In this document: piece after piece, positions 1 through 7,698 of the stretch
How the letters are laid out: each line of letters begins with the position of its first letter
Numbering within the stretch: position 1 is the first letter of the stretch
Source of the DNA: a virus
UHGV virus genome: UHGV-0114356
Length of the DNA stretch: 23,414 bases
Strand: one strand, 5' to 3'
Position numbers and translations under genes: made by a program
The notes under the pieces: model-generated
Told to the model about the DNA's origin: nothing
Databases searched by the model: none
What the model saw: the letters and a program-made list of their open reading frames with translations, nothing else

Positions 1-101
1 GCGTCACGCCGAGCGCTTTCACTTCCTGCTCTACCCAATCCATATACGGAGCCGGTTGCGGTATTTCCGTTAATAGAGATAGTTCCGGTGCTATAAATCA
101 T
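1..101 (-). CDS. hypothetical protein, 5' part only (starts at 101, runs off the window start)
   Basis: ATG at 99-101 on the minus strand with AGGAG 5 nt upstream (rc of 102-115 = atttaggagttgtt). Open frame continues to position 1: MIYSTGTISINGNTATGSVYGLGRAGSESARRD... Gly/Thr/Ser-rich; too short to assign a family. Confidence 0.35.
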   Translation of the reverse strand, partial: MIYSTGTISINGNTATGSVYGLGRAGSESARRD

Positions 102-606
102 AACAACTCCTAAATTTAGACAACATGAAGCCCGGAGAGGTATATAACCATCACCAGAAATAATTTCTGAATTGGTTTTTAATACATGTTGGGCAACGCC
201 AGTGTTGGCATAGCTATAGTTGTATCAAATGCCATTGACCACCCACCCAAATAATAATTGCCGACTACTTTATTCCTTTCTGCTCTGACATTCCCACCTG
301 TCATTACAATTCCTTTATACCTAATATTTCCGTAACCACCAACGTGTCGACAGTTAGCCCCGGTATAAACAATCTGGCAAAATTCATCACCAATATTCAG
401 GTTCGCATTGGCGATATTTATTGTCCCATCAAAAATGAATGGCTTCGTGCAAGTAAGAAGACGTTTGCGTTGACGATTGGTTTATTCAATCCATCAACTA
501 AAATACCATGTAAACGAATTGCCATAACATTTCCCACTTTATTTTACTTACTCAACACAACAAGTATATTAAAATTGAACCTTGTCAACAACACAAAGGA
601 GTCCCA

Positions 607-837
607 ATGAAACTCGCTCTAATTATGCTGCCATTATGTCTGTCCCTCACTGCATGTGGTAGTGGCCTGAATACCGGTAAACCGAATTCCGGCGTTATCC
701 CAAAACCCTTGGATTGGGATAACGGTTCTTTAATTTATGATACCGAAAAGCTTCCAATGACTGGGCAATGGTGCCATGAGATTGATCATGAATACCGACG
801 AATTGGTTCACCTTCAAACTGTGTAGCTAACTACTAA
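607..837 (+). CDS. small secreted lipoprotein (76 aa); candidate superinfection-exclusion lipoprotein
   Basis: ATG 607 preceded by AAGGAG (596-601, 5-nt spacer). N-terminus MKLALIMLPLCLSLTAC is a signal peptide with a lipobox (L-T-A-C); mature part begins CGSG and has two further Cys. AT-rich, opposite orientation to the tail operon, followed by a terminator. Confidence 0.6.
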   Translation: MKLALIMLPLCLSLTACGSGLNTGKPNSGVIPKPLDWDNGSLIYDTEKLPMTGQWCHEIDHEYRRIGSPSNCVANY

Positions 838-870
838 AAGAAACCCCCCGCGCTAAGCGGGGTTGTTTTT
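838..870. terminator. bidirectional intrinsic terminator between convergent lipoprotein gene and J
   Basis: GC stem ccccgc (846-851) / gcgggg (857-862) with loop gctaa, flanked by an A-rich run on the 5' side and ttgttttt on the 3' side; T-tracts on both strands. Confidence 0.6.
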
Positions 871-1480
871 ATCCTGAGAATGAACCAGAACCGCGCGTCA
901 CAATGACGGTCGGTGAATTTATATAAGCCCCCATACTATTTTGAGCGGATACCTTAATTTTAACTGTAACGGCACGACTGGTTACAGGTGATGAGTGCAT
1001 TACAAGACGCTCGTTGCCGTCCATAGGAAGGTTTTTTTCTGAACCTTCAATGTTTATCGTGCAGCCACCAAAACCTTTAACGTTTGCCATAACGCAGATA
1101 TGTCTTCTATGTGCTGCACTTGATGTGTCATTGTATGTAATTGTTTTTTCGAGTACGCCATCATTTAACCTGCTAACGTCAGATCCTGTGTACATATTCG
1201 CAACGTCTCCCACAAAACTGGTAGCTTCCACAGTACCCGTGAATTTACCGCTTGTTGCTTGTATCTCACCAGTAAATCTACCACCACTAGCGTATACTAT
1301 ACCTCTCACAGTTACATTATTGAATTCAGCATCCCCAGCTTTATTTAACTTCCAACCAGCAGAACCAGCTGCATAGTTGTTGGACTGGATATAGTTGCCG
1401 ATTTTGGCGTTCTCAATGGTGCCGTCCTGGATGAAGCTGGCCCGGATGAATGTCTGCCCGTTCTGGATCACGAACGGCAA
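869..1480 (-). CDS. J: host specificity protein J (tail tip/central fibre), C-terminal fragment 3 of 3, out of frame with fragment 2
   Basis: Translation PFVIQNGQTFIRASFIQDG... is collinear with the lambda gpJ C-terminal region (lambda ...MFVAQGNQIFMNDVFLK...). The listed start is an in-frame TTG; this frame is open upstream to a stop at 1640-1642. Confidence 0.7.
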   Translation of the reverse strand: MPFVIQNGQTFIRASFIQDGTIENAKIGNYIQSNNYAAGSAGWKLNKAGDAEFNNVTVRGIVYASGGRFTGEIQATSGKFTGTVEATSFVGDVANMYTGSDVSRLNDGVLEKTITYNDTSSAAHRRHICVMANVKGFGGCTINIEGSEKNLPMDGNERLVMHSSPVTSRAVTVKIKVSAQNSMGAYINSPTVIVTRGSGSFSG

Positions 1481-1482
1481 AG

Positions 1483-3198
1483 CTACGCTATTTCCGGCTG
1501 CCGTGGTGACGGCAGTGTTACAGTCCCGCCGACCATAGTAGTCACGGCGAAACGGTCTGCCAGGAAGATTACCTGTGACTGCATGCCGGAGGGTGTATTT
1601 TGAACCCCTATACCCATCCCGGCAGCGTAATACTGCCCGTTACTGGACACCCCCACCTTGATGTTATACATCGCGCTGAGGTTACCGTTTACGTTCGCAA
1701 TGGCCTGAGCGTTGGTGGTGATGGCTGAGGTATGCCCGTTCACCGTCGCCGTGATGCTGTTTACCTGCGTGGCCATAGCCTGCTGGTAATCGGAGAACGT
1801 CTGATTCAGGCTGTTTATGGATGCCTTGTTGCCGTTGACATCCGTCTGCAGGCTCAGCAGAGAGCGCGCCGTTGCCTCCTTCTCGTTAACGATTACCTCA
1901 TCAATACGATCCAGCTGCGCACTGTTACCGGCGACCGTCGCGGAAAGCCTTTTGCGTGTGGCCACCTGCGCCAGCCCGTTCTGGATTATCGCAATTGCAG
2001 AGTTCTTCACCCCGCCCGTCATGCCGTCCATCGACACAGAAATCTCGTCGATCTTCACTTCGGCCTGAGCCAGCCAGTCAGCGTTCTCCAGGATGTCTTT
2101 CGCCTGCTGCTCGAGTTCGTCGGCATGGTTTTTAATTTCGTCAGCCATGCCAGCAATTTTTTCATTGCTGTCCACCGCGTTCTCGATCAGATCTTTGAAC
2201 GTATCGGAGCCTTTCATGTCCTCCAGGATTGCATCGGTGATATCGGAAACATCGATGCTGGCCTGCCCGCGCACCCAGTCTGTCCAGTCGCTCTGATTCC
2301 CGATGCGGTCAACCAGCCGTGCCCGGTACCAGAATTCCTGCCCTGCCTTCAGCCCCATCTGCTGATAGAGTTTCTGAGGATACGGCACCGACGCCAAAAG
2401 CATTGGATTTGCCCCATCGACTGAAGCGCTGTATTGCAGTTCCGTGCTCAGGGTGTCGGCGGTATCTGCGGGGAAACCCCATGTAATGTTGATCCCTAAT
2501 ACAACATCCTCTGTTGCTGTTAGTCCGACAGGTTTGGGCACTTCACCGGTGCGGCCGGTAAGATGGGTCAACGCAGACGTGGCCCAAAGGCTGGACGCTC
2601 CCCCAGAGTTAATCGCACGGACGCGCACAAGGTAATCGCCCTCGAAAATGCCAGGCACTTCGATATTTCGTAACCCGGTTTCAGGCACGTTTACCCATTC
2701 GTTATTTCCGCGCTTCCACTGTGCCCGGTACGCTATTACGTCCGACTGCAGTTTGCCGTCTTTATCAATTGGCGCATCCCACGAGGCGGTTAGCGTGGCC
2801 ACGCGTTGCCCCTGGCGAACCGCATCATAGCTCGATACCACGATGTTGGTCGGCTGGTTAACTAGCCCGGTCGGAATCAGGCTTATCGGAGGAGTATCGA
2901 GGCGAGCATTGTTATCAACGGCGTCGTATTTCGACGCGTTATACTCCGCACCGGTAATGGTGAAGGTGTTTTCCTCATCATCAAATTTTAGGTTCGTTAC
3001 CCGGAAATACTGCAGGCGCAGCTGACCAGCATCAATGACGAATACGGCATTAGGTAATGGCGCCGCCGTGAACGGCGTGGACAGGATCAGCTGCGTGCCA
3101 TTTACGGCCTGTATCATCCGGCTTTCAACGGTACCGCCCTGGGTGCGAATCATCAGCGTATCGCCCGCCACCGCACTGGTGCCCCGGTCAATGGTCAC
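1483..3198 (-). CDS. J: host specificity protein J, central fragment 2 of 3 (FNIII-like region)
   Basis: Collinear with lambda gpJ from about TLTLDREITLP onward (here AVTIDRGTSAVAG...) to ...SQFLVAANRIAF (here ...SQVIFLADRFAV). Listed start is a GTG; frame is open upstream to 3255. Confidence 0.7.
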   Translation of the reverse strand: MTIDRGTSAVAGDTLMIRTQGGTVESRMIQAVNGTQLILSTPFTAAPLPNAVFVIDAGQLRLQYFRVTNLKFDDEENTFTITGAEYNASKYDAVDNNARLDTPPISLIPTGLVNQPTNIVVSSYDAVRQGQRVATLTASWDAPIDKDGKLQSDVIAYRAQWKRGNNEWVNVPETGLRNIEVPGIFEGDYLVRVRAINSGGASSLWATSALTHLTGRTGEVPKPVGLTATEDVVLGINITWGFPADTADTLSTELQYSASVDGANPMLLASVPYPQKLYQQMGLKAGQEFWYRARLVDRIGNQSDWTDWVRGQASIDVSDITDAILEDMKGSDTFKDLIENAVDSNEKIAGMADEIKNHADELEQQAKDILENADWLAQAEVKIDEISVSMDGMTGGVKNSAIAIIQNGLAQVATRKRLSATVAGNSAQLDRIDEVIVNEKEATARSLLSLQTDVNGNKASINSLNQTFSDYQQAMATQVNSITATVNGHTSAITTNAQAIANVNGNLSAMYNIKVGVSSNGQYYAAGMGIGVQNTPSGMQSQVIFLADRFAVTTMVGGTVTLPSPRQPEIA

Positions 3199-4718
3199 GG
3201 CCTTAAGACCAGCGTTATACCCGGTGATACGCCGTAAACGCGCCCTGACAGGCGTTCATCTGCAAACGCAAATACGGTGCCCGGCACGAATACAAAGCCA
3301 TCAAGTCCAGTCTGAAGCGTGATAATGCGGTCAAGGGAGTTGGAATACACCGCCCACCCGCCACGCCGCTGCGCCTCGCTCTCACGCGTACAACCGATCG
3401 CAGTGATTTGTGTCTGCTTAAACTTGAACTGCCTTACCAGTTCCGGAAACATCACTGCCGTGGTGCGGTCCTGGTAGTGGTTATCCGGATCGCTGAAGTT
3501 AATCAGCGCGCTGGAGAATCGGTTTTTCTCACTGCCACTCGAGTACACCGGCTTACCCACCACTGATGCGCGAGTGAGGATCTGCAACTTCGTAGTGTCC
3601 GCCGGCATGTCAGAGACAACATTGAACATGTTGTTGCCCCAGAAAGTCATTCCGTTGAAGCCCGCGGCAATATCTTTAATCACCTGCCAGGCATCAGCCT
3701 GGGACTGGATGTAAACGTCAAACATGAAGCGTGGCTCGGTACCGCTTCCGCCTTTCCCGTCGGGTACCTTCTGGTCGCAGCGCTGGGCGATGCGATAGAT
3801 CTCCCACTTATCGAGCATTTCTGGCGTCACGCGGCGCCCAAGGCCGAAGCGCGGCTCAGTCAGAACATCGAACCAAATCCACGCCGGGTTATTCGTCCAG
3901 CCCCATTTAAACGTCCCGTCCCATGTTCCGCTATAAGTCCGCGCTATTGGATCATAGTTCGAAGGGATTCGGATGATGCGCCCCTTCGGCATGCAGGAAA
4001 TCTTAGGGATGTTGTTGAATGACTTTGCGTTAAAGGACACGTACAGCAGCGCTGTGTGTGGATATCGCAGGCGAGCATCGATCACTTCAGTAATCGCTTG
4101 CACCTGCGTTTTGTTCTGCAGCATCTGGCTGGTGCTGTCATCGGTGTCACGCACCACTCGAATTTGCCAGCCAGTGCTGGCTTTGGGAAGATTAATACGG
4201 TGGGTTAGTTCATAGAGCGAGCTGAGCTTCTCTGTGACGGTTTTCGTCATGACTGTCGAGTAAGCGCCACCGTCCACCGCCAGATCAATATGGTACTGAA
4301 CCGTAGTGCCGACAATATCCCCATCGTTTTCCTGCTGCTGTAACCCAGGGATGCCAATACGAACCAGCACCGCGTCAATCTGGGTGTTACTCAGTGCGCG
4401 GGTCCATGGTGTGGCCTTTGTCAGCGATACCCCAACCGTAGTTTCATTCTCGACTGCAGGGAATCCCGGTATTGGTGTCTGGGTCTGTGTGCCAGGCCGG
4501 AAATCCCATGACACATTTTCAAAATTCATCGTTCCGTCGGGGTTTCCCAACGGCGTACCGTCCAGGAATATCCGGGTCGCATCCAGGCCACCAGCAAACT
4601 CCCCCTCCCCGAGCGCCAGCAGCATGCGGCAGCGCGCCATTGACTGAGCCGAATCGGGCTGTTCTACAGGTGTGTGCTGCTTCTGGCTGCCACCCTTTGC
4701 ACCAGTGATCGCTTCCAT
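3195..4718 (-). CDS. J: host specificity protein J, N-terminal fragment 1 of 3
   Basis: N-terminus MEAITGAKGGSQKQHTPVEQ resembles lambda gpJ MGKGSSKGHTPREAK; conserved blocks LQNKTQ, IPSNYDP, YSGTWDGTFK, EPRFGLG, CDQKVPDG. Ends prematurely relative to lambda J (about 1130 aa). Confidence 0.8.
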   Translation of the reverse strand: MEAITGAKGGSQKQHTPVEQPDSAQSMARCRMLLALGEGEFAGGLDATRIFLDGTPLGNPDGTMNFENVSWDFRPGTQTQTPIPGFPAVENETTVGVSLTKATPWTRALSNTQIDAVLVRIGIPGLQQQENDGDIVGTTVQYHIDLAVDGGAYSTVMTKTVTEKLSSLYELTHRINLPKASTGWQIRVVRDTDDSTSQMLQNKTQVQAITEVIDARLRYPHTALLYVSFNAKSFNNIPKISCMPKGRIIRIPSNYDPIARTYSGTWDGTFKWGWTNNPAWIWFDVLTEPRFGLGRRVTPEMLDKWEIYRIAQRCDQKVPDGKGGSGTEPRFMFDVYIQSQADAWQVIKDIAAGFNGMTFWGNNMFNVVSDMPADTTKLQILTRASVVGKPVYSSGSEKNRFSSALINFSDPDNHYQDRTTAVMFPELVRQFKFKQTQITAIGCTRESEAQRRGGWAVYSNSLDRIITLQTGLDGFVFVPGTVFAFADERLSGRVYGVSPGITLVLRP

Positions 4719-7305: not shown

Positions 7306-7698
7306 TTAACTTCCATTCATTTCGACAAGCCGGTAATCAGTTTTCCCATCCTTGTCTTCAATGCATTCAGCTCTGAATTTCTGCTCAAGACCAAATTTGT
7401 TTTTAGCGCTAAATTCCTGCGTCGCGTAGAACTTACCGTCATTGCCGAGCCATCTGTTAGAGCCAAACGCCGACATATCCAGGGTGCTTTTATTGATCAC
7501 TGACTTTCTAACGTAAGCTTCACAGGCATTACGAAGTTCATCTAATTTTTTATCTGCAAGTTCCTTGGCTTCTTTTTGCTTTTTTTCTTGCTCGGTTGGT
7601 TTATTAACCACCGCTGCAACAAAAATCACAACAAGAAGAAGCAGCAACAGCCCAATGGTTCTTAGGATCTTCTTGATTATTTTATTTAACACAATCAT
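7306..7698 (-). CDS. membrane-anchored moron protein (130 aa), function unknown
   Basis: N-terminal basic stretch then one hydrophobic helix (ILRTIGLLLLLLVVIFVAAVV), a Lys/Glu-rich linker and a C-terminal domain with two Cys. Visibly AT-rich relative to flanking H and M; own terminator downstream; sits where lambda has no gene. Confidence 0.6.
   Translation of the reverse strand: MIVLNKIIKKILRTIGLLLLLLVVIFVAAVVNKPTEQEKKQKEAKELADKKLDELRNACEAYVRKSVINKSTLDMSAFGSNRWLGNDGKFYATQEFSAKNKFGLEQKFRAECIEDKDGKTDYRLVEMNGS

Follow-up and report, generated by a model that had tools for sequence, protein, structure and literature searches.

The viral genome UHGV-0114356 (23,414 nucleotides (nt); this whole stretch is referred to as the window) carries at 607-837 on the plus strand the gene of a lipoprotein precursor of 76 amino acids (aa), convergent with the receptor-binding tail gene J. 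This open reading frame (ORF) probably encodes an outer-membrane lipoprotein that acts on LamB so that LamB-dependent phages cannot infect, and the receptor concerned is almost certainly LamB, rather than FhuA, BtuB or OmpC. LamB-linked superinfection-exclusion lipoproteins are a kind already described and once tested, and the window gene is a lambdoid-prophage member of it. The window itself is an HK639-like lambdoid prophage with 85% nucleotide identity to HK639 over 1349-21965; HK639 has neither the lipoprotein gene nor the window-type J end.

The lipoprotein family and its link to LamB

The experimental anchor of the family is Lpp010 (mEp010 gp116), a type-C lipoprotein (Lpp) described by Negrete-Mendez et al. 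2025 (PMC11893012). Expression of Lpp010 by itself, from a plasmid in E. coli W3110, led to exclusion of mEp010, mEp044, mEp554 and lambda, and the same authors state that exclusion of lambda was not on record for any lipoprotein of a lambdoid phage (PMC11893012). The type-C Lpp of mEp554 differs from Lpp010 in two residues and shares 54% identity with the window protein (BLASTP E = 1e-30). Between PNSGVIP and the C-terminus 39 of the 52 aligned positions are identical in a manual count (~75%), and the C-terminal RRIGSPSNCVANY is the same in both proteins. Lipobox and the two conserved Cys are shared as well, as are the convergent position ~30 nt from J, the terminator held in common with J and a J C-terminal domain of the same class. 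What sets type-C Lpp apart is its signal peptide, the start of its mature part (the first ~10 residues; GSGLNTGK versus AVDKEAALHNL) and the non-lambdoid mEpimmI backbone of its phages. An earlier note on this DNA, made from the sequence alone, had suggested a receptor-blocking small lipoprotein beside J, and the homology to the tested Lpp010 and to mEp554 type-C Lpp supports this suggestion. By sequence comparison the J end of lambda is unrelated to the J ends linked to the family, as is also stated elsewhere (10.64898/2026.04.02.716166); since lambda was excluded despite its unrelated J end, LamB is the common denominator of the excluded phages.

Receptor usage of the carriers points in the same direction. 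A tblastn search over 50,697 phage records detected the family in only 44, and all carriers with a determined receptor use LamB, none FhuA. The carriers are E. coli prophages, among them that of Nissle 1917, lytic Seuratvirus and Nonagvirus phages (Seurat, CAjan, slur01, 9g, CSP1 and four BASEL phages), the Dhillonvirus phages EP23, HH3, PNS1, Maverick and CS16, and the temperate mEpimmI phages mEp010, mEp013, mEp044 and mEp554. According to the BASEL receptor table the carriers in that collection are exactly the LamB-dependent Bas21-24; the LptD-dependent Queuovirinae Bas19, Bas20 and Bas25 are not among the 44 records. The mEp carriers are likewise the four LamB-dependent phages, infection by all of which was abolished by a lamB knockout (PMC11893012), and the OmpA-dependent mEp021 and mEp515, which carry an unrelated type-A lipoprotein (PMC11893012), are not among the 44. 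In the IMG/VR loci the last 200 aa of the linked J ORFs fall into two classes, window/9g/mEp554 and SeppeHuegi, each of which includes experimentally LamB-dependent phages (BASEL Bas21-24; mEp010/013/044/554). Both lipoprotein subtypes are paired with both J-end classes in these loci, which indicates the shared receptor, and not a phage protein, as the target.

In phage carriers the gene always runs convergently to J, with the J-like tail-tip gene on one side and the side tail fibre gene on the other. In 28 of 30 IMG/VR loci a gap of 28-39 nt separates the end of the lipoprotein gene from a long, convergent J-like ORF. The exact 76-aa protein was found in 388 blocks of an assembly collection; all ten of the loci shown have an adjoining intact J of 1266-1308 aa in convergent arrangement, and they represent several integration sites and two tail-backbone types. 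In every genome record examined the family gene is labelled 'hypothetical protein'. Two genomes hold two such prophages each (loci L045/L046 in GCA_902505335.1 and L047/L048 in GCA_947047345.1), at different chromosomal sites; the two share an identical lipoprotein and J-end cassette but differ in tail backbone.

The full product is MKLALIMLPLCLSLTACGSGLNTGKPNSGVIPKPLDWDNGSLIYDTEKLPMTGQWCHEIDHEYRRIGSPSNCVANY, which starts with MKLALIMLPLCLSLTACGSG and ends with NCVANY; the gene at 607-837 comprises 76 codons plus stop. A strong ribosome-binding site AAGGAG at 596-601, 5 nt before the ATG, is read directly in the plus strand and is kept in the upstream alignment of homologues. The putative signal peptide comprises codons 1-16 (607-654), with Lys2 followed by a hydrophobic core, and leads into a lipobox LTAC (L14-T15-A16-C17, 646-657) that fits [LVI][ASTVI][GAS]C. 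The codon of the putatively lipidated Cys17 lies at 655-657 and opens the mature part of 60 aa (655-834), which holds Cys56 and Cys72 at mature positions 40 and 56. The earlier note had thus rightly placed an ORF of this size with a strong ribosome-binding site opposite the tail operon, with a signal peptide, the lipobox L-T-A-C and two more Cys. Asp at position +2, directly after the lipidated Cys, causes retention in the inner membrane; in the window protein this position is taken by Gly, which predicts Lol-dependent sorting to the outer membrane, so that both lipidation and outer-membrane location of the window lipoprotein are predictions from its sequence. An Rfam scan of window 1-1500 at E <= 1 matched no family, thus no known RNA element competes with the lipoprotein ORF.

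A candidate sigma-70 promoter is located at 543-570 on the plus strand, with TTTACT at 543-548, a spacer of 16 nt and TATATT at 565-570, and matches the consensus at 9 of 12 positions in a consensus scan. The same site reads TTGACT-16-TATATT in several homologues of the upstream alignment, and the site keeps its place ahead of the gene in homologues from prophages and from lytic phages. The earlier note had named TATATT at 565-570 and TAAAAT at 570-575, both of which are present, but its statement that there is no convincing -35 is modified by the candidate TTTACT. On the other side of the gene a bidirectional intrinsic terminator serves lipoprotein gene and J (839-870, both strands), with a G+C-rich stem at 846-862 and a T-run on either strand. 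The hairpin occupies the 31 nt between the lipoprotein stop (835-837) and the minus-strand stop of J (869-871) and has a folding energy of -16.4 kcal/mol (z = -2.9 versus shuffles). Terminator scan hits at 846-862 on both strands, together with the fold, bear out the sharing of a terminator with J that had been proposed from the letters, and the mEp554 record has an annotated terminator at the equivalent place. Promoter-like site, ribosome-binding site and bidirectional terminator suggest that the lipoprotein gene is a transcription unit independent of the tail operon.

The lipoprotein ORF is a real gene under strong purifying selection. Pairwise comparison of the mature part with nine relatives gave dN/dS values of 0.08-0.19 at dS 0.4-2.5. 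In alignments of 27-30 relatives Cys17 is invariant and Cys56 and Cys72 are nearly invariant, and the motifs PNSGV, DTEKLP.TGQWC and RRIGSPSNC, each of which the window protein contains, vary little or not at all across the family alignment. PHROG 12984 'lipoprotein', a very small and uncurated family to which the type-C Lpp proteins belong, matches residues 1-76 with E = 2.3e-50. Pfam and NCBIfam at E <= 1 contain no family for the protein, thus no match to Lom (Ail/Lom) or Bor, and PADLOC models at E <= 1 gave no match either. A search of 5.8 billion clustered proteins delivered 29 clusters with E <= 7e-13, all of them unnamed or 'hypothetical'. An exhaustive profile search of 1.84 billion representatives delivered three true family representatives and no distant relatives that would deepen the family alignment; two further profile matches were rejected as repeat-protein false positives, one a CshA/SdrD adhesin, the other a protein that matched MORN repeats below threshold. 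Among GTDB genome contigs there were pattern matches, none of which was confirmed as a family member by tblastn.

A diverged family member of 72 aa (MKKLIAVVAILLCTNAFANTNEPNSGV...) is found at L035 3020-3238 and in L036, both IMG/VR contigs of about 28 kb. It has no canonical lipobox and resembles a signal peptidase I substrate (AFA|NT), and it does not lie beside J, but among small same-strand ORFs ~3 kb upstream of the terminase genes. By its sequence this member could be a variant of the factor that is soluble in the periplasm.

Proposed mechanism and rival explanations

According to the proposed mechanism signal peptidase II would cleave the precursor before Cys17, this residue would be lipidated, and the Lol pathway would carry the product to the outer membrane; a disulfide between Cys56 and Cys72 probably forms. 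The lipoprotein would then put the LamB maltoporin out of use as terminal receptor, both for phages with a J receptor-binding domain of the window type and for lambda. It would bind LamB directly, most likely at the periplasmic face, by analogy with the pairs Llp-FhuA and Rtp45-LptD. Transcription would run opposite to the late tail operon from a weak sigma-70 promoter of its own to the shared terminator, with translation from the strong ribosome-binding site, and because it would be independent of the late tail operon, the lysogen could make the lipoprotein. In lytic relatives the protein would be made in infected cells and would spare progeny from adsorption to debris.

LamB is a trimeric porin without a plug domain and LptD is likewise without plug, which makes Rtp45 a better model than Llp. 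Both precedents are ~6-kDa lipoproteins whose genes lie beside the receptor-binding gene and whose action moves extracellular loops (PMC9586334; 10.1101/2025.07.07.663478). Llp binds the periplasmic face of FhuA (PMC9586334), and Rtp45 binds the periplasmic side of LptDE (10.1101/2025.07.07.663478).

Several points weigh against the reading of the window gene as a LamB-directed exclusion factor. The tested homologue is only 54% identical overall and has another signal peptide and mature N-terminus than the window allele, and it failed to exclude the LamB-dependent mEp013, so that protection is not universal for LamB users (PMC11893012). The mechanism of Llp is not simply transferable to a receptor that, like LamB, lacks a plug. 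Structural support is missing: an AlphaFold2 model from a family alignment of 27 sequences is unreliable (mean pLDDT 57, pTM 0.32), and Foldseek of this model versus PDB delivered only meaningless hits (E >= 5.7). The promoter scan gave 3 hits versus 2.0 +/- 1.6 in shuffles, which is not above expectation. A further point comes from the probiotic strain Nissle 1917.

The E. coli Nissle 1917 homologue (L006 6208-6441, WP_021567253.1) belongs to a prophage next to aspS/yecD in which the adjoining J is intact, and is 92% identical to the window protein (identity taken from L009-L013, which have the same sequence). To our knowledge it has never before been linked to the lambda resistance of that strain, which was ascribed to an unidentified prophage factor. 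Nissle 1917 is fully lambda-resistant, and its cloned repressor gene explained only part of this (PMC5987069). The strain removes lambda from suspension in a LamB-dependent and maltose-inducible manner, even when formaldehyde-fixed, with adsorption followed over 24 h (PMC5987069). Nissle thus still adsorbs lambda, and the homologue, if expressed there, does not prevent adsorption. An alternative that we regard as possible, although clearly less probable than loss of LamB as a usable receptor, is therefore a block after adsorption, by which the binding site of LamB would be left usable while tail-tip insertion, conduit formation or DNA passage would be stopped, turning the cells into a phage sink. 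Such a decoy would agree with a lambda-resistant, lambda-adsorbing strain carrying the homologue next to an intact J, and with a lipoprotein that, by the rule for position +2, is expected to face the periplasm and might there block the way out of the barrel. Nissle resistance may however have other causes (capsule, O-antigen or other prophage genes), adsorption was measured over 24 h, and the solved precedents Llp and Rtp45 both abolish binding of the receptor-binding protein. Somewhat more doubtful still is the wider proposal of a mechanism unlike that of Llp, exerted on the plug-less LamB from the periplasm, perhaps as a decoy that protects carrier and neighbours, and accounting for the unidentified prophage factor of Nissle.

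The remaining explanations leave LamB aside. The gene could be a host-benefit moron with no relation to exclusion, serving serum resistance, adhesion or envelope stress in the way of lambda Bor or Lom. Lambda lom sits in the equivalent place, the usual moron slot that separates J from the side tail fibre genes; the window gene comes with a promoter and a terminator of its own, and no function is annotated for it in Pfam, NCBIfam or PADLOC. We consider this very unlikely: the family is equally present in the strictly lytic Seuratvirus, Nonagvirus and Dhillonvirus, for which a host-virulence factor is useless, it tracks J ends of the LamB type and no other receptor type, and Lpp010 excludes phages when expressed alone. 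The same slight probability attaches to an accessory or chaperone protein that the J C-terminal domain would need in order to fold, assemble or recognize its receptor. Tight linkage and co-transfer with the J receptor-binding end would suit such a role, but the conserved lipoprotein signal peptide directs the product out of the cytoplasm, where tails are assembled, the gene is transcribed against the tail operon, each lipoprotein subtype occurs with either class of J end, and Lpp010 works without a phage partner. Least probable of all, and close to negligible, is divergent descent from the Cor/Llp family, with FhuA as the blocked receptor. Precursor size (76-78 aa), lipobox, two extra Cys and a location near J are similar, but in hhalign the alignment with Llp covers 20 columns of signal peptide and lipobox only, that with Cor is weak over the first 53 columns and has no conserved mature motif, and the Cys spacing differs (mature Cys40-Cys56 versus Cys11-Cys58 in Llp). 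A phmmer search against PDB chains, Llp among them, found no hit at E <= 10, and no carrier phage with a determined receptor uses FhuA. Membership in Cor/Llp is thus refuted at the sequence level; of the parallel drawn in the earlier note the analogous design stands, and a relationship does not.

If LamB is indeed the target, a carrier is immune to lambda and other LamB-dependent phages, and the possession of a homologue by the probiotic Nissle 1917 has a possible bearing on its full lambda resistance. The gene is found in many E. coli prophages, in some genomes in two copies. Being absent from Pfam, NCBIfam and PADLOC, it is missed by phage-susceptibility prediction and by designs for phage therapy and biocontainment. 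How a ~6-kDa lipoprotein could switch off a plug-less maltoporin is the mechanistic question that it raises.

Disrupted J gene and exchangeable cassette

The gene J (tail tip, host specificity; 869-4718, minus strand) is disrupted in the window. With the intact 1304-aa J genes of close relatives as reference, tblastn of the J proteins of ABWA45 and L041 versus the window gave three pieces in frames -1, -3 and -2, which correspond to an N-terminal part of 496 aa, a middle part of ~606 aa and a C-terminal part of 214 aa. The receptor-binding gene J named in the earlier note is therefore a pseudogene split over three frames. The first lesion is a 4-bp deletion near 3227-3230, by which one tandem copy of CGCC was lost; the protein around it is otherwise 100% identical to ABWA45. 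The second is an extra segment of 35 bp at about 1509-1543, exactly at the cassette junction described below. It continues the resident J (...DRFAVTT-MVGGTVTLP...) and is followed, out of frame, by the incoming allele AVTTAAGNSVALPF...; it looks like a leftover of the replaced allele, a scar of the imprecise recombination that brought the cassette. Neither lesion occurs in the relatives compared, ten close relatives having a single uninterrupted J of 1266-1308 aa. Programmed or tolerated frameshifts were rejected as an explanation, as J is uninterrupted in the ten relatives and the lesions sum to 31 nt, which is not a multiple of three. To judge from these reading frames the window prophage is probably unable to make infectious tails, unless there are assembly errors at J. 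A broken J beside an intact lipoprotein gene may fit a gene that benefits the host, or the lesions may simply be recent.

The C-terminal 214 codons of J including the stop (869-1513, minus strand) represent the receptor-binding end of the central tail fibre, which is of the LamB-linked class. They share 98.6% identity with the C-terminus of the intact ABWA45 J, and the final ~110 aa look almost the same as the C-terminal end of the J of the LamB-dependent mEp554. Over the last 200 aa, relatives of the window J class share 62-67% identity with mEp554-class ends and about 70-77% with 9g-class ends.

This end of J is part of an exchangeable cassette at 47-1513, which also takes in the terminator, the lipoprotein gene and the 5' remnant of a side tail fibre gene. 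Window 47-1513 shows 98-99% identity in ten prophage loci, whereas the adjoining J (first 500 nt, window 1538-2037) shows only 83-91% identity to the same loci, and the boundary is at the same position in all ten. High identity within the block and its drop at one fixed boundary indicate that the block moves as a cassette. The lipoprotein gene passes together with a LamB-binding J end between unrelated groups, namely HK639-like lambdoid prophages, mEpimmI phages, Seuratvirus, Nonagvirus and Dhillonvirus, so that attack and self-protection are exchanged together.

Within the cassette the lipoprotein gene is itself mosaic. Its first 17 codons are DNA-identical to the Nissle allele (L006 6208-6441), and the mature part has a dS of 0.77 to it. 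From about 736 through the 3' end of the gene and the terminator into the J end, the DNA resembles the alleles of mEp013/044/554, with 82-85% nucleotide identity. This pattern places recombination break points inside the lipoprotein gene.

The start of the side tail fibre (window 418-537, minus strand; MAIRLHGILVDGLNKPIVNANV...) resembles the N-terminus of the Seuratvirus lateral tail fibre and runs into a stop after 39 codons. Its downstream part lies in another frame (window 179-436, minus strand) and is annotated in relatives as a separate DUF6453 protein. The same truncation is found in ABWA45, and the side fibre gene seems to be fragmented in this prophage lineage. A further variable slot lies between the tape-measure gene and the minor tail genes (window 7306-7698, minus strand, and the corresponding slots of L039-L044). 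It holds P22 antirepressor-like and Arc-like genes in L039 and elsewhere an ORF of 128-130 aa without family match, and may be another moron slot.

Comparison with known systems

Cor of phi80, N15, HK022 and T1 resembles the window protein in that it, too, is a small lipoprotein; its gene is a moron that lambdoid phages carry downstream of J, and the product shuts out phages that use the same receptor. It differs in being encoded on the same strand as J at a distance of 1-1.1 kb in HK022 and N15, whereas the window gene is convergent at 31 nt, and in its receptor, which is FhuA, whereas the window gene is linked to LamB. In an hhalign comparison of HK022 Cor with the family profile the match covers the signal peptide and extends weakly just past it, and the mature parts share no motif.

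Llp of T5 has a precursor of ~77 aa, a mature outer-membrane lipoprotein of ~60 aa with one disulfide, its own promoter and a gene beside the receptor-binding gene, and it inactivates the receptor of its own phage. Sequence similarity is limited to signal peptide and lipobox (20 columns in hhalign). The Llp disulfide Cys11-Cys58 ties the mature N- and C-termini together (PMC9586334); the non-lipid Cys of the window protein are at mature positions 40 and 56 instead of 11 and 58. Llp furthermore jams the plug of the TonB-dependent transporter FhuA, for which LamB has no counterpart.

The Rtp45 / Bas18 superinfection-exclusion lipoprotein is also a protein of ~6 kDa; small siphoviruses encode it in their receptor-binding locus, downstream of the J-like gene. 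Its target is a plug-less barrel, which it binds at the periplasmic side and whose extracellular loops are displaced, and it is the best mechanistic model for the window protein. The receptor differs (LptD), and the comparison here is one of size, gene position and mode of binding.

Homologous genes, annotated 'lipoprotein' or hypothetical, are carried by LamB-dependent phages of the Queuovirinae and Dhillonvirus (9g gp69, Seurat, CAjan, Bas21-24, EP23), with 68-91% protein identity and, for the Seuratvirus gene, about 90% nucleotide identity to the window gene. Position next to the J-like and lateral tail fibre genes, orientation and upstream region are the same, and the BASEL papers place superinfection-exclusion factors at this locus. 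These phages differ from the window prophage in being strictly lytic, so that the role of the lipoprotein there would be lytic conversion or protection of progeny rather than protection of a lysogen.

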